From Deinococcales bacterium (GTDB lineage: Bacteria; Deinococcota; Deinococci; Deinococcales; JAAFIG01), in contig JANNVX010000088.1 of NCBI GenBank assembly GCA_031414595.1, positions 29,787 through 93,786 of the forward strand: 64,000 nt of DNA, written 5' to 3'. Under the pieces are notes generated by a model. The model was not told the DNA's origin, searched no databases, and saw nothing but the letters and a program-made list of their open reading frames with translations. Below are positions 5,004 to 38,373 of the stretch, one piece after another. The translations under genes and the position numbers were made by a program. How positions within the stretch are numbered: the first letter of the stretch is position 1; every line of letters starts with the position of its first letter.

Positions 5004-5485
5004 TGGCGCGACGTGAATTACTGGTCGCAGCCGCCGTGCTGCGCGATAAAATGGGTCGTGTGTTGTTGGTTGCCAACGACTGGCAAGGGCTGGGTCGGGT
5101 GCGTTATACCGTCCCGGGCGGCATGGTTGAACACGGCGAAACTGCGCTGCAAGCTGTCAAACGCGAAGTTCTCGAGGAGACAGGGCTAAAGGTCAAGCAC
5201 GTCCATCATTTGGCGTACAGTGTCCATATCGAAGATGAAATGAAGAACGAACGGATTATTGTCTTTGCTTTTGCTGCCGAATGGGATGGGTTATTAAACC
5301 CTCGAGACCCAGATGGTTTTATTGTCGAAGCCCGTTTTTTTGACCCCAAAGAAGCCGTCGAAAAACTGGGACAAGTGCCGATGCGTGAACCGCTCCTCGA
5401 TTACTTAACCACGGGGGTTCATGGGCGTTTTTATGGTTTTAATGGCTGGGATGGACGCGGTGGGGTGCGTGTTCCGGGTTTATGA
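5003..5485 (+). CDS. NUDIX hydrolase
   Basis: Nudix box GGMVEHGETALQAVKREVLEETGL. ATGG/TAA-coupled to prfA. Confidence 0.9.
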   Translation: MARRELLVAAAVLRDKMGRVLLVANDWQGLGRVRYTVPGGMVEHGETALQAVKREVLEETGLKVKHVHHLAYSVHIEDEMKNERIIVFAFAAEWDGLLNPRDPDGFIVEARFFDPKEAVEKLGQVPMREPLLDYLTTGVHGRFYGFNGWDGRGGVRVPGL

Positions 5486-5910
5486 ACTTAATTCCAGAAC
5501 TGAGTGTCAAGGATTATTTAGCCAGTCTCGAGTTTTACACCCAAGTGCTGGGTTTTGATGTGCTGTACGAACGTTCCGAAGAAGGTTTTGCTTTTTTAAC
5601 CCTTGGACAAGTCCAATTGATGATTGACCAAATTGGCTTAGGGCGGACTTGGCAAACGGCTGCTTTTGAATATCCGCTTGGACGCGGAATCAACTTTCAA
5701 ATTACAGTTGATAATCTTGAGCCTATCTTAGACAATATCAATAAGCGTCAAATTCCGCTTTTGATGGAAGTCGAAGAACGCTGGTATCGTAAGAATAATC
5801 TTGAACTTGGTAATCGGCAATTTTTGGTACAAGACCCAGATGGTTATTTGCTGAGGTTTGCACAGGATTTAGGAACAAGGGAAGTGAAAAATGACCAACG
5901 AAACAATTAA
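5482..5910 (+). CDS. VOC family protein (glyoxalase / bleomycin-resistance fold)
   Basis: 142 aa. Pattern SLEFY..VLGF...F..L and a C-terminal DPDGYLLRF are typical of the VOC fold. Confidence 0.75.
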   Translation: MNLIPELSVKDYLASLEFYTQVLGFDVLYERSEEGFAFLTLGQVQLMIDQIGLGRTWQTAAFEYPLGRGINFQITVDNLEPILDNINKRQIPLLMEVEERWYRKNNLELGNRQFLVQDPDGYLLRFAQDLGTREVKNDQRNN

Positions 5911-9829: not shown

Positions 9830-11381
9830 ATTTTTTCAAAAATCGCTTGGTCAGGCGTTCAACTTCAGGCACTCGAAAAATCACACATAAAAGAATGTAA
9901 ACTGCCCCCCCTATCCCCCCAGCCACCACGCAATGCAGTAAACCATTGACCGCGCCCCTCGAGTACGGCAAGAGGTTTGATACAGTAACCGCCACAAAAT
10001 AAGTCGCTACGGCTGCCGTACCAACCTTTAGGGTATGCCCAACCAATTTTTTCCACGGCAACGTGATTTGTTTGTGCAGCACTGCCACATAAACCCCAAC
10101 CATCAGCCAGCCAGCAATGGCGGTTGCATAATTCATGGTCACAAAACCAAAACGTGCCAGTAACACATACAAACCTGTGTTGAGTAAAAATGCCACAGTC
10201 GAAATAATCACGGCTTCTCGAGTACGTTCCCTTGCATAAAATGCTCTGGTCAAAAGCTGCACCAAGCCCCACGGCGCAATTGCCAAGGCAAAGGTCGGCA
10301 ACAGTGCCACAGTCGGGTTAAACACCAAGTCTGGGATTTTCTTGGTTATCTCGAGCAGCAGACTGGTAATGCTTGGCGAGAGCGCCCATAAAAGCGCCGA
10401 AACACCAGCCGAAAAGAATAGCACCAGTTTTGAGTATTGCATGACTGTATCGCGGAAAAGTTGCCAATTTTGATTGCTGGCATACTCGGATAAACGCGGA
10501 TAAGCGGCGGTAGCAGGGGAGACCGCAAATAAACCTTGCATGGTTAAAAAAATAATTTCGGCATTGCGAAACCCCGTTAAAGTCCCCTCACCAAAACTGG
10601 TCAGCAAACCAATCAAAATAACACTTAGGAATTGGCGGGTACTGGTGGTAAAGGCAAAGGGTGCCATTAACCCGAGGGCTTTGGATAAACCCGAATGCCA
10701 CTTAAAACTTGGCAAACTGAGCAGTCCAGATTTTCGTAAACTCGGTAACTGCACCAATAACTGGGCAAAGCCACCAAAACTGGTAAATAAACCAAGCCAG
10801 AGCGCTTGATTGGGGAACAACACAAACCCTAAAATCGTGACCAAATTAAAAGCTAACGGCGCAAAAGCGGTTGCGCCAAATTTTTCTTCGGCATTTAGTA
10901 AACCCATCACCAGTGCCGATAAGGAAATACCCATTAAAAAAGGCATACACAACCTCGCCAAATAGACAGTTAAATCCTTATCTAGTTGATTATTTTGCGC
11001 TCCAGAAAAAATACTCGAGACCTGTAGTAAATCTACAATTTGCGGTGCAAAAATAATCCCCAAGCCAACAATCAGGGCATTGACCCCCAGCAGTACCCCC
11101 AGTAAACTCGAGGCAAAGGCTTTGCGCTCCGACGGCAAAAGCCGCTTATAGACTGGAATAATGCTGTTAGACAACGCGCCTTCGGCAAGCAGTTCTCTGA
11201 ACAAATTCGGGATGGTACTGGCGACATTATAGGCATCAAGTAACTTGGCATCGAAATTACTATTCAGTAATGCTTGACGCAACAATCCCAATACCCGACT
11301 CGAGAGTGTACCGCTCATTACGGTCAAAATATTGCGGCTCGAGCTTTTGCGAACTGGGGCGATTTCGGTTTCGGTTTCCAC
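9828..11381 (-). CDS. murJ: lipid II flippase MurJ (MviN)
   Basis: 517-aa polytopic protein. N-terminal SRVLGLLRQALLNSNFDA and overall MurJ/MviN architecture. Confidence 0.9.
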   Translation of the reverse strand: METETEIAPVRKSSSRNILTVMSGTLSSRVLGLLRQALLNSNFDAKLLDAYNVASTIPNLFRELLAEGALSNSIIPVYKRLLPSERKAFASSLLGVLLGVNALIVGLGIIFAPQIVDLLQVSSIFSGAQNNQLDKDLTVYLARLCMPFLMGISLSALVMGLLNAEEKFGATAFAPLAFNLVTILGFVLFPNQALWLGLFTSFGGFAQLLVQLPSLRKSGLLSLPSFKWHSGLSKALGLMAPFAFTTSTRQFLSVILIGLLTSFGEGTLTGFRNAEIIFLTMQGLFAVSPATAAYPRLSEYASNQNWQLFRDTVMQYSKLVLFFSAGVSALLWALSPSITSLLLEITKKIPDLVFNPTVALLPTFALAIAPWGLVQLLTRAFYARERTREAVIISTVAFLLNTGLYVLLARFGFVTMNYATAIAGWLMVGVYVAVLHKQITLPWKKLVGHTLKVGTAAVATYFVAVTVSNLLPYSRGAVNGLLHCVVAGGIGGAVYILLCVIFRVPEVERLTKRFLKK

Positions 11382-25948: not shown

Positions 25949-26023
<75 letters not shown>

Positions 26024-26093
26024 AAAGAAAGCCCCGTGATGAACGGGGTTATTTTATTTACCACTTTAGTTTTGTGTTGTGGGGTTTCTCGAG

Positions 26094-28437: not shown

Positions 28438-28701
28438 ATGATACACCAAGCCACCCCAAGCACTCGAGTAGAACGCATCACTCACAGAATGCTCGAGAAG
28501 AACGCCCAAGCCTTAGAAGTCGTTTACTCAGACAGCCCATACAATGATGCTCGAGTAGAACGCCGTTTAACCCTCACCCTCAACAATGGAATGCTCACAG
28601 CTACACGCGGCACTGGTCGCACAATAGATAACCTTGAGGAAGTTTTAGAAACCGCGTACCAGAACATCATCTCAGTAACACCAAGGACGGTGAGGGCATG
28701 A
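28438..28701 (+). CDS. hypothetical protein (island)
   Basis: 87-aa ORF with AAGGAG 8 nt upstream. First gene of a translationally coupled set. Confidence 0.45.
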   Translation: MIHQATPSTRVERITHRMLEKNAQALEVVYSDSPYNDARVERRLTLTLNNGMLTATRGTGRTIDNLEEVLETAYQNIISVTPRTVRA

Positions 28702-29033
28702 CCGCCCTCACTTCCCCAAGGACAGTACAAACCCGTCCTCTGGGTCGCACTGTTCTAACTGGTTGCCTCTCGCTATTCATTCCAACTACTGGCACAAAAC
28801 CAGAAGCTCAAGCCAAACTCAAGACCGTACTCAAAACCATCCGCCCAATTCTCAAGCAGTACAGCAACATCAAAGCCCCACGCTTAACCACGCTCGAGGG
28901 ACACCGCATCATCAAAGTAGAATTCTTTGCCATGCCGTGGCGTTTGGTTTGTCGGCTCGAGGATGCACTGATTGCCGTCAGTGGTTGTCAACTTGGCAAG
29001 GTGTACCAACTGCAAAGGATGGTTACAGCATGA
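28698..29033 (+). CDS. hypothetical protein (island)
   Basis: 111-aa ORF. ATGA overlap with the previous gene. Confidence 0.45.
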   Translation: MTALTSPRTVQTRPLGRTVLTGCLSLFIPTTGTKPEAQAKLKTVLKTIRPILKQYSNIKAPRLTTLEGHRIIKVEFFAMPWRLVCRLEDALIAVSGCQLGKVYQLQRMVTA

Positions 29034-29332
29034 ATACCCTTACTTTTAATTGTGATTGCTGTGGTGCAGTCACCCCTGCTATGCCAGTTTTAGGTTTGTC
29101 TTCATTAAATAAGCGCTCAGATTGTCCAAAATGCCTTGCCCATGAATTACTTTACGATGCCGCCTTAAACCATCTCGAAGAAGCCCAAGACCGTTTAATT
29201 CGGGAATGGGTAGCTTACTGGGTTGCTGCTGGTGTCAAAAGAGAATCCCTTCTTGACTCTGACCCACATCTACACAGTTGTGAAGCCGCAGAACGCACCA
29301 TTGAAGCCATTAGAAAAGAGGTAGGGGCATGA
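29030..29332 (+). CDS. hypothetical protein with two Cys pairs (zinc-ribbon-like)
   Basis: ATGA-coupled start at 29030. MNTLTFNCDCCG...CPKC arrangement. Confidence 0.45.
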   Translation: MNTLTFNCDCCGAVTPAMPVLGLSSLNKRSDCPKCLAHELLYDAALNHLEEAQDRLIREWVAYWVAAGVKRESLLDSDPHLHSCEAAERTIEAIRKEVGA

Positions 29333-29595
29333 CCATAAACACCGCCGATCTACCTTTTATTCGTCTTTACATCCTGACCAAAGCCTTTGAAGATATTCCC
29401 GCCTCGAGTGAACTACTGGTAGACACTCGCCTGACTGGATTAGAAGTCGGTTCGGTGTACATCCTCGAGCTTGTCACTGGTTGCACCTTGTACCGCGTCC
29501 CTCCGGAGGGTCTGGACTTACCAATTCTCGAGCATCCTGTACGGGTCGTCGGTAAAGTCGTCAGGGTCGCAAATAAAAGAGAGATTCGACTATAG
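29329..29595 (+). CDS. hypothetical protein (island)
   Basis: 88-aa ORF, ATGA-coupled. The C-terminal VRVVGKVVRV is faintly reminiscent of S24/LexA-like beta-barrels. Not assigned. Confidence 0.4.
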   Translation: MTINTADLPFIRLYILTKAFEDIPASSELLVDTRLTGLEVGSVYILELVTGCTLYRVPPEGLDLPILEHPVRVVGKVVRVANKREIRL

Positions 29596-30103: not shown

Positions 30104-30273
30104 TCGGGCGGCGCAAACTTGATAAAGCCCTCGACAAAACGCCCTGCGTTGGCTTCGTTTATGGCGCGGGTCAGCATGGTGTCAAAGGCAGCAACGTCAA
30201 GTAAACCATCGGCTTTTAACTGCCGTGTTTCCTGCTGTAGCTCCTTCATTTTTTCCCAATTAACCATAAGCAC
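30064..30273 (-). CDS. hypothetical protein, possibly the 5' half of a frameshifted gene
   Basis: 69-aa ORF. Its start lies 25 nt from a 13-bp perfect inverted repeat. Confidence 0.35.
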   Translation of the reverse strand: MLMVNWEKMKELQQETRQLKADGLLDVAAFDTMLTRAINEANAGRFVEGFIKFAPPEWIAQNVRLPLES

Positions 30274-30297
30274 CCTCGAGTAATTTTAGCACTTCGA

Positions 30298-30332
30298 CGA
30301 TTAAAGTATATCTCACTGCTATACTTTAATCG
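30298..30332. promoter_or_regulatory. 13-bp perfect inverted repeat (operator-like)
   Basis: CGATTAAAGTATA-tctcactgc-TATACTTTAATCG. Immediately upstream of the leftward ORF at 30273. Confidence 0.5.
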
Positions 30333-30339
30333 TTTGCCC

Positions 30340-30710
30340 TAAACACAAGTTAATCGCTACGCTCCATGCTTCGCATAAAAAAACGTGTGTTCCGCTTCGC
30401 GGTGAAAAGACTCGAAAAGCTACCAGCACGGGCTGGAGCATCCCTTCAAGGCTGAAGCCAAAGCAGCTCTGGTACTACCCACAAGAGGCTTCTTAGGGGC
30501 GAACTCGCACGGAATCACACAGCAAAAAGCGGCTGTGTGTTCCTAAGCTCGAGGCAACCCAGTAACCAGCTTAAAAACCAAGTCTCGAGTACAACCAACC
30601 CCTAAAGCTGTAAAAATCTGCTCTCGAGCTAACTGCCCCAACCCTATGCTTTAGCTTATTCTTTAAGCCTTTAGCCCCACCCAAAACACTTCAATAAATG
30701 CGTTTTATTG
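30340..30710. other. ORF-free, hairpin-dense region (candidate ncRNA or replication/packaging site)
   Basis: No ORF of 60 aa or more. Contains a CCGC-UUCG-GCGG tetraloop hairpin (30392-30403), GGAAtCACACAGC-aaaaagcg-GCTGTGTGTTCC (30501-30543), and the word GTGTGTTCC twice. Confidence 0.4.
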
Positions 30711-30732
30711 CGTCCAGTACGATATAAACTGC

Positions 30733-30761
30733 TTGACAATTCCACTATAAAATAGTAAACT
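30733..30761 (+). promoter_or_regulatory. promoter P1 for the SLOG/DprA-like gene (apparently leaderless)
   Basis: TTGACA (30733-30738), 17 nt spacer, TAAACT (30756-30761). ATG at 30767 with no Shine-Dalgarno. Confidence 0.5.
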
Positions 30762-30766
30762 ATTAT

Positions 30767-31213
30767 ATGTTTAACAGTCTTATTGTTGCTGTTGTCGGAA
30801 GCCGTCACGGTTCAAACTTACCTGTAGCCCAAGTCTGTTATCACCTTCTTGGGCAGCATTGCCAAATCGTTACGGGTTGCGCGGCTGGTGTAGATCATCA
30901 AGTGCGCCAAGCCATCCCAAACGCCAAGGTTATCAGTGCCATGTCTTTTGTTCGTCGTGGCTTGCCTGTTTCGGCTGCGCTTGCTGCTCGTACCAAAGCA
31001 GTTATCTCGAATAGTCAAGCGGTTTGTATTTTCCCGCCGGCTAATGGCAATCTTGGTCCAGGTTCGTTACTGGCTTTGCAATCAGCACTTAAACAAAACA
31101 TTCCTGTTTGGGTGGCTGGTTCTAAACCACCTACTCAACTGGGTTGGCAACCGTTCGTACTTTCGGGTGTTTCAGGTTGGTTCTTTAATTGTGGTTTAAA
31201 TTCGCTTTTTTAG
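30767..31213 (+). CDS. SLOG-fold / DprA(Smf)-like Rossmann protein (DUF2493-like)
   Basis: 148 aa. VAVVGSRHG ... VTGCAAGVDHQV ... AVCIFPP...GPGSLLALQSALKQNIPVWV mirrors the GxR ... GGAxGxD ... GT layout of DprA/SLOG domains. Confidence 0.6.
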   Translation: MFNSLIVAVVGSRHGSNLPVAQVCYHLLGQHCQIVTGCAAGVDHQVRQAIPNAKVISAMSFVRRGLPVSAALAARTKAVISNSQAVCIFPPANGNLGPGSLLALQSALKQNIPVWVAGSKPPTQLGWQPFVLSGVSGWFFNCGLNSLF

Positions 31214-31235
31214 TGTTCAGTACAATATAAATTAC

Positions 31236-31265
31236 TTGACAAACACACCTATACTGTGTTACTAT
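31236..31265 (+). promoter_or_regulatory. promoter P2, paralogous to P1
   Basis: CAGTACAATATAAATTACTTGACAA matches P1 CAGTACGATATAAACTGCTTGACAA at 22/25. TTGACA (31236-31241) then TACTAT at 18 nt. Confidence 0.5.
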
Positions 31266-31360
31266 TTAAGTCAGAAAGGAGTTTATAGACCGCCAAAAAA
31301 AGAACCCAGTGCGCTAACACTGGGTAAGCAATCCCCCTAAGCAATAGAAAGGAATACACC

Positions 31361-31570
31361 ATGAACAATAGCATTAACCGCTCACTTTTCGCTCGAGCCA
31401 AAACCCTTACTAACGGCGAATGGTCAGACCTGTACCGCGCTTACCTTGGTGGCACACCAAACCCAGTCTATACAGACTCCCGCAGTGGCAAAACCAAAGG
31501 CTTTAGCCGCGCCGAGGTTTCCCTGCTCGAACAACGCCTAGGCACACCACGTCAGCAGGTGGGGGCATGA
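31361..31570 (+). CDS. hypothetical protein (island)
   Basis: 69-aa ORF preceded by AAAGGAA. Confidence 0.4.
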   Translation: MNNSINRSLFARAKTLTNGEWSDLYRAYLGGTPNPVYTDSRSGKTKGFSRAEVSLLEQRLGTPRQQVGA

Positions 31571-31740
31571 CCGCCCCCTTTTCCCTTCCTGCTTACACGC
31601 CCCCAGAAATCTATGGGGACGACTGGGAAGAACTCAAAGCATGGAAACTCGAGGACGAATTAGAAATGGAAACCCAAGCACTCGAATTAGCTGCCAGTCC
31701 GTTCGGAAATGTTCCAGATTCAAGTCCTTTACCGTTCTAA
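31567..31740 (+). CDS. small acidic hypothetical protein (57 aa, below the ORF-track cutoff)
   Basis: Translated by hand: MTAPFSLPAYTPPEIYGDDWEELKAWKLEDELEMETQALELAASPFGNVPDSSPLPF. ATGA-coupled to the previous ORF. Confidence 0.35.
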   Translation: MTAPFSLPAYTPPEIYGDDWEELKAWKLEDELEMETQALELAASPFGNVPDSSPLPF

Positions 31741-31750
31741 AATCGTTCAA

Positions 31751-31776
31751 GCCCTCGAGTTCTTAAGCTCGAGGGC
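31751..31776 (+). other. hairpin built from two CTCGAG copies
   Basis: GCCCTCGAG-ttcttaag-CTCGAGGGC, downstream of the 57-aa ORF. No U-run. Confidence 0.5.
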
Positions 31777-31829
31777 TAAACACTCGCTCCAGCCCGTGCT
31801 GATAGCAAATATCAAAGGAGTTTGACCGC

Positions 31830-32123
31830 ATGACAAAAATCACTAAATACCTAACTGTCACACCATTACGCGAAATGAAAGAACACGCCAAAATCATTTG
31901 GTTATGGTTAATGGACAATCAAAACGTTGCTATCACCATCCGCGACCTTGGCGAACTGCTAAACATGACTCCTTTAACGGTCAGTCGAAGCATCATTGCA
32001 CTTGAACAAAACAAATTACTGACTCGAATCTCCATCAAAGGGATACGCGGTCAATCGTTTTCGTACCAAGCAACAATTCCAAGTACCGTACCGCTCGAGC
32101 CAAAAAAAAGGCATAAATCCTGA
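31830..32123 (+). CDS. winged-helix DNA-binding protein (MarR/DeoR-like)
   Basis: ITIRDLGELLNMTPLTVSRSIIALEQNKLLTRI helix-turn-helix plus wing. 97 aa. Confidence 0.6.
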   Translation: MTKITKYLTVTPLREMKEHAKIIWLWLMDNQNVAITIRDLGELLNMTPLTVSRSIIALEQNKLLTRISIKGIRGQSFSYQATIPSTVPLEPKKRHKS

Positions 32124-34195: not shown

Positions 34196-34379
34196 TTGAA
34201 TAATTGCTTAGGTACTGGTTTAAGGCTTTGAGTTGGTCTGGTGTGAGGTCGTCAAGGCTTTTGAGTTTGCCAGTATGCCCAATCAAATAAGCGACGAATA
34301 GCCTTGTGGTTGTTTGCTTTGCTGCCCGTATCACTGGGATGCTGTTCAGGCGCACCCATGCCAAGCTCGAGGCTTTCAT
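34140..34379 (-). CDS. hypothetical protein (island)
   Basis: 79-aa ORF, 4-nt overlap with the helicase-like gene stop. Confidence 0.35.
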   Translation of the reverse strand: MKASSLAWVRLNSIPVIRAAKQTTTRLFVAYLIGHTGKLKSLDDLTPDQLKALNQYLSNYSNDVLEHSYLEYIKGKAKA

Positions 34380-36025
34380 GCTTTAACCTTCATTGTCGCT
34401 GCCTCGAGTTCGTACAACCGCTCGAGGGCTGCCGTGTCGCCACCCTTAGCGGCTTTTACCAGACTGGACAATATCAGCCGGTCAGCTTGGCTCGAGGGTC
34501 GCATTGCTAAGAACCGCGTCTCGAGTTCAGGGGTCAGAGTTGCACCTACTCGTTTTGCTGTGGGTTTCGACACTGGCAAAACATAATTATGTCCATCTTT
34601 GATAATTGCACCTTGCTGCTCGAGCAGTTCAAGGGCTGTTTGAATTTCGGTTTGAAATGCACCATGTTCAAAACTCAGTTCACGGTATAAGTTCACTGGG
34701 GTTATCCGGCGCTTTGCTTTGATAACCTCGAGTGCCAAAACCGTCAAATCATTTGATGCAGTTGAATCATTTGATGCAGTGGCTTGTGCATGAAATGATT
34801 CGCTGTCTATAACGCTGTTCTTGGCATTTGATGTAGTGGATTGCATAGCAAGCGTATCCCCTGTACCCCTTGCTCTAACTTCTGACTGCATGAAATCGGC
34901 TTTATGCGTGATTGACGCAGTAACATTTGATGTAGTGCCGACTGCATGAAATGGGAGTGACTGCATCAAATCATCTTGGCTCGAGTCATCGCTTTTTGTG
35001 GGTAAGGCTTTAAGTCTGTACGAAAGTGGCGCACCCTTTCCAATCCCTTTGATGGTCTCGAGCCGATCACCAAAGCCACCAAAAGCACGGCGCATAGCTT
35101 CATCTGCCCATCGCTCTTTGATGTTACCGCCTGATATTGCCACTTCAAGCAATTCTTTACGGCTAAAGGTCTCACCCGCTCGAGCCTCGAGAAAGCGTGT
35201 CACGGCTTTTTCCGCTCTGTCCTGCCCGTTGTTCTCGGAGTTGGGAAGGTCACACCGTTCAACTCTGACCAAGTAAGCAGGGTCTATGTCATCGCCCTCG
35301 AGAACCAAGCGCACACCAAAAGGCTCGAGTCTTTGGGCAAAACTTTGTTTATGGACTTCCCAGCGAAGTGTATTTTGACCATCACATTCTTTTGGGTCAA
35401 CTCGAGACAGGATATGTACCGCTCGAGCCTGTGCGCTCTTGGCAACACTTCCCATAATGCCCCTGTCGCCGTCTTTCTCCCCTGCCATGCGTTTAGGAAT
35501 GTGGTCAGTGATAATCACGGCTGCTTTGGTCTTGGCTGCCAAGTTACGAAGTCCAGCCATCGGTTTCATGGTTTGCTCGAGTCGGTTTATATCGAGTCCG
35601 GGGAACGCACCCATGTACGAATCAATCACGATGACTTGGGTCCCACTCTCCAAGGCGTGTAAGGTCAGGTTCTCGAGGTCGTCAGGGGTCAAACCACCAT
35701 CAGACGGCTCGAGAACCGCAATCTTTGAGATGTCGCCATCTGGGTAAGCGGCTTTGTGTTTCTCGAGCCAGTGGCGTACCGTTCGGGATTCGCCATCAGG
35801 TGCATCAGTATTTACATAGATACTTGAGCCATGCGGCACACGCCAGCCAAGGAACTCACCACCGCGAGGGCGTGACATCTGCCAAAGAAGCCCTGCGAGG
35901 ATCGTAGTTTTGCCAACGCCCTCACGCGCTCCAAAGAATGAAGTAAAGCCAAGCGGGAACACATCAGGTACAACAAAGCGGATGACCTCGAGAGGTGCAG
36001 TTAAATTGACCATCTTCAAAGCCAC
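34376..36025 (-). CDS. RecA/DnaB-like replicative ATPase (AAA_25 / RepA-like) with C-terminal wHTH-like region
   Basis: Walker A GAREGVGKTT, Walker B VIVIDSYM, DnaB-C/RepA-like core. 549 aa. Confidence 0.75.
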   Translation of the reverse strand: MALKMVNLTAPLEVIRFVVPDVFPLGFTSFFGAREGVGKTTILAGLLWQMSRPRGGEFLGWRVPHGSSIYVNTDAPDGESRTVRHWLEKHKAAYPDGDISKIAVLEPSDGGLTPDDLENLTLHALESGTQVIVIDSYMGAFPGLDINRLEQTMKPMAGLRNLAAKTKAAVIITDHIPKRMAGEKDGDRGIMGSVAKSAQARAVHILSRVDPKECDGQNTLRWEVHKQSFAQRLEPFGVRLVLEGDDIDPAYLVRVERCDLPNSENNGQDRAEKAVTRFLEARAGETFSRKELLEVAISGGNIKERWADEAMRRAFGGFGDRLETIKGIGKGAPLSYRLKALPTKSDDSSQDDLMQSLPFHAVGTTSNVTASITHKADFMQSEVRARGTGDTLAMQSTTSNAKNSVIDSESFHAQATASNDSTASNDLTVLALEVIKAKRRITPVNLYRELSFEHGAFQTEIQTALELLEQQGAIIKDGHNYVLPVSKPTAKRVGATLTPELETRFLAMRPSSQADRLILSSLVKAAKGGDTAALERLYELEAATMKVKA

Positions 36026-36685: not shown

Positions 36686-36793
36686 CCCAGTTTGTAGCCT
36701 GAGTAATTGGCTTTAAGTTTTTGACTCGAGGTGCTACAATTCTGGTATCAGTTTGTGCAGTTCTCGAGTGTCCCGTGTTGCCAGCACGGGACA

Positions 36794-37015
36794 TTATTTT
36801 GCACCTTGCTCGAGGATATTCTTAACAAAAGTTTCAAGTTCTGCTCGAGGAATATACGCACGGTTTCCGATTCGTATTGCTTTAAGTTTTCCTTCTCGCA
36901 CAAGTTTATAGGTGCTATCCCGCCCAATTCCTAAGAACTTTGCTGCTTGGTGGGTGTTCACCATCAATGGTGAATCAATAGGGGTAAGTGTCGCCGCCGT
37001 TTCTGGTAACGTCAT
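36794..37015 (-). CDS. xis: AlpA/excisionase-family HTH DNA-binding protein
   Basis: LMVNTHQAAKFLGIGRDSTYKLVREGKLKAIRIGNRAYIPRAELETF is the typical HTH_17/excisionase pattern. Confidence 0.8.
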   Translation of the reverse strand: MTLPETAATLTPIDSPLMVNTHQAAKFLGIGRDSTYKLVREGKLKAIRIGNRAYIPRAELETFVKNILEQGAK

Positions 37016-38170: not shown

Positions 38171-38218
38171 TGATTCGTAATCAGTAGGTCGTCGGTTCAA
38201 CTCCGACCATCGGCTCCA
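38171..38218 (+). repeat. attR core (displaced 3' 48 nt of tRNA-Thr)
   Basis: Identical to 25976-26023. Followed by about 59 bp of 88% similar flank. Confidence 0.85.
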
Positions 38219-38373
38219 GAAGAAAACCCCGTGATGAACGGGGTTTTTAGATTTGCCACTTTAGTTTTATGTTGTGGATTTTTGTGTTGTGATGCAGAAT
38301 TTGGTGCTTATGAATCATGGTTTTGGAAACAAAATTTATGCCAATCAATACCGAATTTTTTTAATCAAGTATT

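Follow-up and report, generated by a model that had tools for sequence, protein, structure and literature searches.

A conserved noncoding element upstream of a minimal DprA-like gene on a Deinococcales tRNA-Thr island: a candidate control region or regulatory RNA

We describe here a noncoding element that precedes the gene of a small DprA-like (SLOG) protein on an integrated island of a Deinococcales bacterium, within a 64,000-nucleotide stretch of contig JANNVX010000088.1 which we call the window. As the initial annotation of this DNA had noticed for 30340-30710, there is no open reading frame (ORF) of at least 60 aa here; none exists in positions 30274-30766 of the window, the longest ones reaching 32-45 aa, and the stretch is bounded by a leftward ORF starting at 30267 and by the ATG of the SLOG gene at 30767. 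Inside it lies an element of about 340 nt, of which we aligned six copies, those of the window and of the metagenomic or metagenome-assembled-genome (MAG) loci L001, L002, L013, L014 and L079. Comparison of these six sequences, the only ones available, points to a clear purifying selection, and the ORF-free stretch is most likely a noncoding control region or a regulatory RNA for the neighbouring operon. The mechanism we favour, with a probability of roughly 0.3, is that of a + strand noncoding transcript or leader whose core box would pair with a hairpin close to the ribosome-binding site of a downstream block encoding a winged-helix (wHTH) protein; operator sites in the DNA and an element acting as single-stranded DNA come close to it as rivals. 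We consider the stretch as the control region of a portable 'SLOG-to-wHTH' operon. This tRNA-Thr island is one of its carriers, the others being plasmid-like elements that have ArdC, DUF932 or ParA and, as remoter cases, Thermus plasmids. The features on which the argument is built are the following:

30297-30333: perfect palindrome with 14-bp arms and a 9-nt spacer, in the divergent promoter region
30317-30325, + strand: possible promoter P0, an extended -10-like motif TGCTATACT read from the sequence and directed rightward into the element
30349-30690, + strand: conserved noncoding element of about 340 nt, found at six loci, each time preceding P1 and the SLOG gene with an unchanged orientation
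30366-30376: mini-hairpin ATGCTTCGCAT, read as GCGAAGC on the - strand, present in L013, with variants in L002 and L014
30392-30402: mini-hairpin CCGCTTCGCGG, GCGAAGC on the - strand, with a closing pair changed from C-G to G-C in L002
30419-30439, + strand: upstream 21-mer ('U box'), with the conserved core CCAGCACGGGC at 30423-30433
30511-30543: main conserved hairpin, 12 bp with one bulge, defined by pairing and covariation across six loci
30544-30690, + strand: C-rich, G-poor tract with two boxes invariant in the alignment columns, GCCCCAACCCT (30635-45) and GCCCCACCC (30674-82)
30712-30761, + strand: upstream box GTCCAGTACG and promoter P1 (TTGACA-17-TAAACT); the same box stands before P2
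30767-31213, + strand: minimal DprA-type Rossmann (SLOG) protein of 148 aa, assigned with Pfam, a profile, an AlphaFold2 (AF2) model and Foldseek
31213-31265, + strand: upstream box GTGTTCAGTAC and promoter P2 (TTGACA-18-TACTAT), kept in L002, L013, L014 and L079
31786-31806, + strand: downstream 21-mer, reverse complement of the U box, ending 7 nt before the wHTH Shine-Dalgarno sequence (31814-31820)
31830-32123, + strand: winged-helix (MarR/Crp-like) protein of 97 aa, 60% identical to its L002 homologue

Conservation and architecture of the element

Among the divergent loci, the pairwise identity of the element ranges from 0.56 to 0.73, versus 0.39-0.46 at the third codon positions of the adjacent gene; over the whole SLOG gene, the nucleotide identity among the same loci is 0.61-0.71. 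The element is more conserved than third codon positions and is therefore under a purifying selection about as strong as that acting on coding sequence, and its conservation in six related elements argues that it is functional. A hidden gene for a small protein was excluded because indels of 1-2 nt occur inside the conserved blocks. The link first proposed between the noncoding stretch and the SLOG/DprA-like gene concerns a real, selected element, and both the linkage and the core of the repeat described below are kept in related elements. With nhmmer, a profile of the element matched only upstream of the SLOG gene in six close loci. The Rfam scan which the initial annotation called for assigned the element to no family of Rfam 15 (30200-31900, E values up to 10, all matches far below gathering scores), and blastn against plasmid and phage collections gave no match. 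Searches with the patterns CCCCAACCCTNNGC...GCCCCANCC in genome contigs and CCAGCACGGGC-N195-225-GCCCCAACCCT in metagenome contigs returned only chance matches, none with the other conserved boxes, and a pattern scan of viral contigs found nothing.

From its 5' side, the element presents one or two mini-hairpins (GC-TTC-GC or GC-TGC-GC), the box CCAGCACGGGC, a block AAGC..CT..GG and a box CTCGCACG; on the 3' side come the main hairpin, a 150-nt tract carrying the GCCCCAACCCT and GCCCCA(C/G)CC boxes, a GTYYAGYAC box and P1. We regard this arrangement as a mosaic of conserved sequence boxes with two or three hairpins, and not as a demonstrably complex RNA, because only a few hairpins are supported and the long-range helices proposed by RNAalifold consist mostly of CTCGAG pairs. 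Both strands of 30334-30766 fold better than shuffled sequences (z = -2.8 and -3.2). From the six copies, RNAalifold produced on either strand consensus folds with a near-zero or unfavourable covariation term, resting on CTCGAG palindromes. The early suggestion of a structured RNA is supported for one covarying hairpin and not for a covarying multi-helix fold. The hexamer CTCGAG itself is present in 369 copies in the window, both within genes and between them, which exceeds the expectation about 24 times, and it recurs in L002, L007, L010, L013, L014 and L079; it appears to be a highly iterated palindrome of the host lineage, comparable in kind to the cyanobacterial HIP1, and its abundance generates many spurious 'helices' in RNA fold predictions.

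The covarying structure is the main hairpin, formed by the arms GGAATCACACAGC and GCTGTGTGTTCC, which had been correctly recognized but extends from 30511 to 30543 and does not begin at 30501. Across the six loci 97.6% of its cells are paired, three of the seven core pairs show compensatory changes (C-G to A-U, A-U to G-C and G-C to C-G), and its covariation score was reached in none of 500 shuffles, giving the covariance check at least one positive answer. A second GTGTGTTCC does stand at 30385-30393, and the alternative pairing proposed for it could form in the window and L001, the remaining loci not having kept it. What had been taken for a CCGC-UUCG-GCGG tetraloop hairpin is in fact CCGCTTCGCGG, whose stem has 4 bp if the loop is counted as 3 nt, or 3 bp if it is counted as 5 nt, and which is not a C(UUCG)G tetraloop. 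As to the palindrome located left of the element, it exists with arms of 14 bp (30297-30310 and 30320-30333) instead of the 13 bp announced; it is identical in L001, replaced by a different palindrome at the equivalent place in L013, not conserved in L002, L013 and L014, and it is a probable operator for the leftward small genes and for a possible rightward promoter.

The main hairpin is followed on the + strand by a U-rich tail of the UUUUCC(U)UU type in four of the six loci (L002, L013, L014 and L079), which makes it a candidate intrinsic terminator of that strand, and in L013 it is terminator-like on the + strand. Behind it lies the C-rich tract, with 31-42% C, 11-16% G and a GC skew between -0.35 and -0.58 on the + strand in all six loci; this skew is among the strongest for 150-nt windows across the whole 64 kb. 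On the - strand, the boxes of the tract read GGGTTGGGG and GGGTGGGG, with conserved runs arranged as GGGTGGGG-N27/28-GGGTTGGGG. An intrinsic terminator backed by a Rho-utilisation (rut) region consists of a hairpin and a U-tail and then a C-rich, G-poor and poorly structured tract. We take the succession of hairpin, U-tail and C-rich tract as the strongest indication, an indirect one, of transcription of the + strand. A possible mirror reading, that of a G-rich - strand with GNA-type mini-hairpins, underlies two of the alternatives weighed below.

The repeated box and a possible pairing with the wHTH leader

The inverted repeat of 21 nt between 30419-30439 and 31786-31806 is complementary at 20 of 21 positions, as first reported; the 21-mer has no further match in the window at up to three mismatches, and none was obtained in 100 shuffles. 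Its only conserved part is the 11-nt core CAGCACGGGCT. The core of the U box is invariant in five of the six loci and reads CCAGCATGAGC in L079, with two substitutions; a complement matching the latter would read GCTCATGC, and the partner site of L079 is outside the recovered sequence. The second copy does lie just upstream of the wHTH gene, 7 nt before its Shine-Dalgarno sequence, and hairpins containing GCCCGTGC precede a ribosome-binding site in L001, L002, L075 and L077 as well. In the window and these four loci, the complement stands on the mRNA-sense strand of an intergenic gap, 7-30 nt away from the Shine-Dalgarno sequence of the last block of genes, and this block is the wHTH gene (window, L001), two small ORFs and a wHTH gene (L002, L075) or an unknown gene (L077).

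On either side of the core, the two copies of one element agree with each other, but the sequence changes from one element type to another: the window type has CTGGAGC after the core and GCTCCAG at the start of the downstream copy, the L002 type has AAAC and GTTT, respectively, and it is this match within the element that gives the repeat the length of 21 nt initially noticed. Comparing the window with L001, the downstream copy presents three differences out of 21, without compensation, and each locus keeps a different perfect run of 16 nt; in L001 box and target pair at 19 of 21 positions with G-U counted (18 Watson-Crick pairs, one G-U and two mismatches). A hairpin of 12 bp forms the downstream site of L002 and L075, and its 3' arm in L002 is a direct copy of the box at 17 of 19 positions. 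There the box matches the 5' arm of the hairpin at 12 of 12 positions, and the local arm forms only 10 Watson-Crick and two G-U pairs, which is the geometry of a competitor strand. As read from the sequences, the G-U pairs of the downstream hairpins fall on the + (mRNA) strand in L001, L002, L075 and L077. An extra copy of the U type occurs in L013 at the 3' end of a leftward gene, so that the mRNA of this gene also carries the complementary sense.

On these grounds we propose the following scenario. Rightward transcription would start from an operator-controlled promoter at about 30320, and the 5' half of the transcript would contain the conserved box CCAGCACGGGC together with the small hairpins; most transcripts would be stopped ahead of P1 by the covarying hairpin (30511-30543), its U-rich tail and the rut-like tract behind them. 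Carried by a free small RNA or by a long read-through transcript, the box would pair with the arm of the hairpin lying 5' of the ribosome-binding site of the wHTH block, and the pairing would alter the translation or the processing of this distal block, following a logic that resembles that of the P4 CI and P1 c4 immunity RNAs. This + strand RNA is supported by the orientation and position of the complement, the covariation of the flanks and the competitor geometry, as well as by the terminator-like hairpin, the C-rich tract and the operator-controlled extended -10 upstream. A strand asymmetry over 150 nt is not expected of a double-stranded protein-binding site, and we also counted in its favour the slower evolution of the element relative to the synonymous sites of the adjacent gene. 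P0 is a possible promoter into the element, which the consensus promoter scan missed because its -35 is poor.

Several observations weigh against this scenario. Promoter scans of the window and its relatives gave no convincing, conserved promoter upstream of the element, and in L002 no more than about 60 nt separate the box from the start of a leftward gene. On neither strand did RNAalifold propose a supported global fold, and the predicted accessibility of the box is poor, its probability of being unpaired ranging from 0.11 to 0.61. The three uncompensated differences out of 21 between the window and L001 mean that only about 11 nt are constrained, and even this core has two substitutions in L079. 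By the crude duplex energy of RNAduplex, the pairing in L002 is no better than with shuffled elements, a scan that was uninformative because long bulged duplexes dominate it. What the six copies show is the conservation under purifying selection, the covarying hairpin, the uneven composition of the strands, the promoters with their leaderless arrangement and a complementary core kept at a constant place; from this we infer the transcription, its strand, the pairing and the regulatory outcome.

The CI RNA of P4 and the c4 RNA of P1/P7 are noncoding and arise from the leading, untranslated portion of an operon that belongs to an integrated element; they carry a short box complementary to downstream sites of the same operon, near a ribosome-binding site or in a leader, and control key regulators. 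The present element is similar in that its upstream noncoding box is complementary to a site of the downstream operon mRNA (20/21 in the window, 19/21 in L001 with G-U, 12/12 for the core in L002). It differs by having no sequence or Rfam similarity to them and by a transcript that is so far putative; its target lies 1.3-2.4 kb away, where theirs is within a few hundred nt, the conservation covers about 11 nt only, and no processing signal of the RNase P type was seen.

Other candidates related to the box were examined and rejected. The motif GCTGGYRG in it resembles Chi, with no convincing enrichment or skew in the window. A third 'target' at 36781-36790, in the rep operon, is probably due to chance: its hairpin is kept in L001 and its complementarity to the box is broken there. 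We did not count a GCCCGTGCTG match inside DUF932 genes because it is conserved as coding sequence, and the downstream hairpins do not have, judged by eye, the core sites of integron attC sites. The hairpin around the third 'target', GTCCCGTG-CTGGCAA-CACGGGAC (36770-36800, - strand), lies directly on the start of a 66-aa ORF which overlaps the stop of an HTH_17 gene (TAATG), and it is maintained in L001 (12040-12075) via compensatory changes.

Alternative explanations

It is quite conceivable, if tentative, that the region acts as double-stranded DNA, its boxes binding proteins of the element or of the host, for example the wHTH protein, and the two copies of the 21-mer being operators of one regulator. 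The KorA and KorB operators scattered over IncP plasmids provide an analogue. The operator boxes would be CCAGCACGGGC, the direct repeat GCCCCA(A)CCC spaced by 39 bp and the GTYYAGYAC box before P1 and P2. Such a control region agrees with a core conserved in five of six loci as a sequence and not as a covarying pair, with copies in both orientations and a third one in L013, with the palindrome CCAGC-N4-GCTGG formed by the inner 14 nt of the window copy, and with the 12-bp palindrome of the L002 downstream site; a second, inverted GGGCAGACCC half-site is found about 50 nt from the box. The conserved upstream box common to P1 and P2, the C-rich repeats at the same place on Thermus plasmids and the absence of a convincing RNA promoter point in the same direction. 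It leaves unexplained the compensatory changes of the main hairpin, the excess of C over G along 150 nt of one strand, the 20/21 identity of the window copies across non-palindromic flanks and the constant position of the complement on the mRNA strand before the ribosome-binding site.

Less probable, in our view unlikely, is the use of the element as single-stranded DNA (ssDNA), with hairpins forming a priming or single-strand initiation (ssi) site, or an origin of transfer (oriT) used in trans, and a DprA-like protein handling the same ssDNA. The neighbours in the relatives are typical leading-region or establishment genes (ArdC, DUF932, Rad52-like, ParB-type methylase, thermonuclease), the DprA family binds ssDNA and its small relative is encoded beside the element, and hairpin-dense ORF-free regions precede the gene in distant relatives too. 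The GCTTCGC and GCTGCGC motifs of the + strand correspond on the - strand to GCGAAGC and GCGCAGC, which are very stable DNA mini-hairpin motifs, found at phage G4, RSF1010 ssiA and N4 promoters (PMC13037366); two copies of the motif are present in each of the window, L001, L013 and L079, and the upstream regions of L002, L007 and L010 contain it as well. Its strand is, however, the opposite one in Thermus plasmids, L003 has it on both, and no relaxase, rolling-circle Rep or type IV secretion system gene was seen in the island or in any fetched locus. A nick on the + strand would in addition put the operon on the non-template strand, the opposite of what is found for leading-region genes (PMC11541004).

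Two known systems were compared in this respect. As at the Frpo and ssi sites (PMC11541004), hairpin-rich noncoding DNA stands directly upstream of establishment or anti-restriction genes (ArdC), all on one strand. We nevertheless rejected a Frpo-type ssDNA promoter: no hairpin rebuilds a -35/-10 pair, neither P1 nor P2 has a conserved complementary partner that would do so, the spacer before P1 varies by 30-40 nt, both promoters are of the ordinary duplex kind, and neither an oriT nor a relaxase was seen. With the oriT of pMV158 (MOBV family), the likeness concerns the arms TAAAGTATA and TATACTTTA of the window palindrome (30300-30330), which equal those of its inverted repeat IR2, and the main hairpin, CACAC...GTGTG followed by TT, which recalls the nick region GTGTG/TT (PMC5863519). 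The loop differs, the host lineage is unrelated, and the IR2 match may be a coincidence because the palindrome is not conserved in L002, L013 and L014 and there is no MOBV relaxase.

Somewhat more speculative again is the idea that the element and the DprA-like protein form a functional pair used at establishment, in which a minimal DprA would recognize or protect a strand-specific structured nucleic acid, offering mini-hairpins, a G-rich - strand and a C-rich + strand, with the box wired to the hairpin near the wHTH ribosome-binding site. We hold it improbable that the RNA is instead made from the - strand, starting near P1, running leftward through a G-rich 5' domain and the main hairpin and ending at the hairpin of the U box and its T-runs. 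Promoter-like - strand sites do overlap P1 in the window, L014 and L079, but their positions are not homologous and they owe their sequence to codons for the N-terminus of the SLOG protein; the U box of the window, read on the - strand, is terminator-like (CCAGCCCGTGCTGG then TAGCTTTTCG), with a tail that is not conserved beyond the window and L001. The - strand folds more stably, as expected of any G/U-rich strand, and some mismatches of the long-range pairing become G-U on it.

The inverted copies might also be recombination sites, either crossovers for an inversion of the 1.35-kb segment or 'linker' homologies for the exchange of modules between elements, which we judge very improbable. The island has a tyrosine recombinase, the near-identical flanks in the window suggest a recent homogenisation, and what lies between the SLOG operon and the downstream copy is variable cargo: DUF932, ArdC with DUF8359, or nothing. 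Inverted repeats flank the segment, as in an inverton, but all seven loci compared have the same orientation, no invertase lies nearby and no recombinase was seen near L002, so that there is no sign of the inversion which the first inspection had envisaged. Its view of the 21-mers as delimiters of a unit also had to be abandoned because conserved sequence continues for about 70 nt to the left of the upstream copy; recombination, besides, would leave the rest of the element unexplained.

The origin of replication (ori) and, on the same grounds, the packaging site (pac) first envisaged for the island are disfavoured as well. No family of direct repeats that could serve as iterons or Rep-binding sites was found in 30274-30766. 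A 13-nt iteron, CATTTGATGCAGT, occurs instead in seven copies (four direct, three inverted) within 230 bp (34750-34972), inside the AAA_25 rep gene (34376-36025, - strand), and the cluster is kept in L001 at 10019-10241; for the replication origin of the island, this cluster within a rep coding sequence is the strongest candidate. The element moreover travels with plasmid-like gene sets (ArdC, DUF932, ParA) which do not include this rep gene.

The + strand RNA pairing with the wHTH leader is weighed among mechanisms which are all of known kinds, and the novelty is that of a sequence family tied to a recognisable portable operon. It lies outside Rfam and the phage and plasmid collections searched, and yet the purifying selection is clear; it travels with a minimal DprA-like gene on an island and on plasmid-like elements, and an analogous hairpin-dense region exists in Thermus plasmids. 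If the RNA reading is true, RNA immunity or regulation of the P4/P1 type would extend to mobile elements of an uncultured lineage, and both the 11-nt box and its target would be defined; in the ssDNA case, if true, a priming or establishment signal would be coupled to a DprA-like ssDNA-binding protein. Either way, an operon running from SLOG to wHTH, with two near-consensus promoters and a leaderless first gene, is a recognisable module. The functional pair, if real, would be a previously undescribed module of noncoding nucleic acid and SLOG protein, going beyond another antisense regulator.

The operon, its DprA-like product and their genomic setting

The remaining features of the operon and of the island are listed below:

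31304-31325 (region 31296-31325): P2-leader hairpin, preceded by an A-run and forming on the - strand a strong intrinsic terminator
31361-31740, + strand: two small ORFs of 69 and 57 aa overlapping at ATGA, both kept in L001
31750-31777: hairpin of 10 bp formed around two CTCGAG sites, immediately following the 57-aa ORF
25949-26023: tRNA-Thr, the only match of the window at the Rfam gathering threshold
25976-26087 and 38171-38282: attL and attR, a 112-nt direct repeat with 92% identity that begins in the 3' half of tRNA-Thr

The start of the SLOG gene is leaderless, as annotated, since the -10 of P1 ends 5 nt before the ATG, and a -10 of the TACAAT type lies 5-11 nt before the ATG in seven related loci. 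P1 and P2 have in common a direct repeat upstream of the -35, which includes the GTYYAGYAC box (30703-30739 and 31206-31242), and their -10 regions (30750-30770 and 31247-31267) are mutual inverted repeats in five loci. The repeat pattern is likewise present in L002, L007, L008 and L010, and these repeats are probably shared, partly palindromic operators for one regulator. The P2-leader hairpin is kept in six loci (among them L002 6548-6569, L013 2511-2532, L014 1092-1114 and L079 994-1016) with a compensatory change from A-T to C-G in the stem and a freely varying loop, each time behind an A-run. Its role may be to keep antisense transcription from reaching the SLOG gene, or to terminate an RNA antisense to the first small ORF. 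The 57-aa ORF resembles by eye a 53-aa ORF at the same position in L002, and a protein search with the wHTH sequence found only the L001 copy. At junctions between translationally coupled genes, a motif AGGTGGGGGCATGACCGCCCCC, in which a G5/C5 hairpin accompanies a Shine-Dalgarno sequence and a stop and start overlapping as ATGA, recurs in the window (28688-28716, 29319-29334 and 31557-31585).

The 148-aa product is a single Rossmann domain, DprA-like in its predicted fold, below family cut-offs and without accessory domains. Its Pfam match to DNA_processg_A (PF02481, E = 2.7e-5) scores 23.9 bits versus a curated cut-off of 29.6, and TIGR00732 gives 20.3 bits versus 191. A profile of the protein and 14 homologues matched the H. 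pylori DprA structures 4ljk/5mll in the PDB (E = 8e-5, positions 7-119), and the best Foldseek matches in the PDB of the AF2 model, which has a predicted local distance difference test (pLDDT) score of 90, are DprA structures with a template modelling (TM) score of about 0.6. The SLOG/DprA-like identity originally proposed is supported by profile and structure; the 'DUF2493-like' part appeared in no scan. With DprA/Smf the protein shares the Rossmann core and the motif GSR...G-x-A-x-G-(V/I)-D. It differs by a length of about one half, by the lack of two domains which many DprA proteins have, SAM at the N-terminus and a winged helix at the C-terminus, and by residing on mobile elements under its own leaderless promoter. 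The anti-phage role once suggested received no support: PADLOC gave for the protein only a weak N-terminal match to ShosA/PsyrA (about 45 residues, E = 3e-4), without the adjacent phosphoribosyltransferase toxin gene of ShosTA/PsyrTA; none of the proteins neighbouring the SLOG gene matched a PADLOC model, and a scan of viral proteins found only relatives at about 30% identity.

The element is part of a 12.2-kb island integrated at tRNA-Thr, whose att sites were defined because the 3' half of the tRNA gene recurs at 38171 within the 112-nt direct repeat. A 460-aa tyrosine integrase and a MazF/HTH pair adjoin attL, and the island further contains small ORFs, the region studied here, a leftward block with a PHROG 'tail protein' match and the AAA_25 gene of a RepA-like helicase. 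It is flanked by ordinary chromosomal genes (LpxA/LpxB-like, ABC transporter, response regulator).

Protein searches gave 16 clusters of homologues of the 148-aa protein. L001 is a MAG with a 96% identical SLOG protein in a syntenic island, and the SLOG proteins of L002, L013, L014 and L079, which are 65-69% identical, are encoded in other contexts; L002 and L075 include among their neighbours a type I restriction-modification system, DUF932, a MarR-type wHTH protein and ParA, and L014 and L077 have ArdC with DUF8359. More distant homologues (41-52%) come from hot-spring metagenome contigs and ten Thermus plasmids of 19-25 kb, typed as non-mobilizable, and their loci keep the gene order SLOG, small ORFs, HTH. 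All these relatives, close and distant, present upstream an ORF-free, hairpin-rich region of 260-770 bp, the sequence similarity to the stretch of the window being limited to the six close loci. A paper on Thermus shuttle vectors covers other plasmids of the same strains and not this region (PMC12724237).

Two of the Thermus plasmids, pTthSNM1-1c and pPS18 (L072 and L073), carry at 5700-5800 long C-runs on the same strand and at the position of the C-rich boxes of the window, which give the other strand a canonical G-quadruplex potential, and also a perfect 15-bp hairpin around a CCCCGAAGGGG mini-hairpin. In L003, an imperfect palindrome about 150 nt long (5403-5556) lies upstream of the SLOG gene, and two nested long-range inverted repeats of unrelated sequence surround this gene (5308-5327/6953-6972, 19/20; 5485-5504/6621-6640, 18/20), suggesting that long-range complementarity around the SLOG gene may be a trait of the family.

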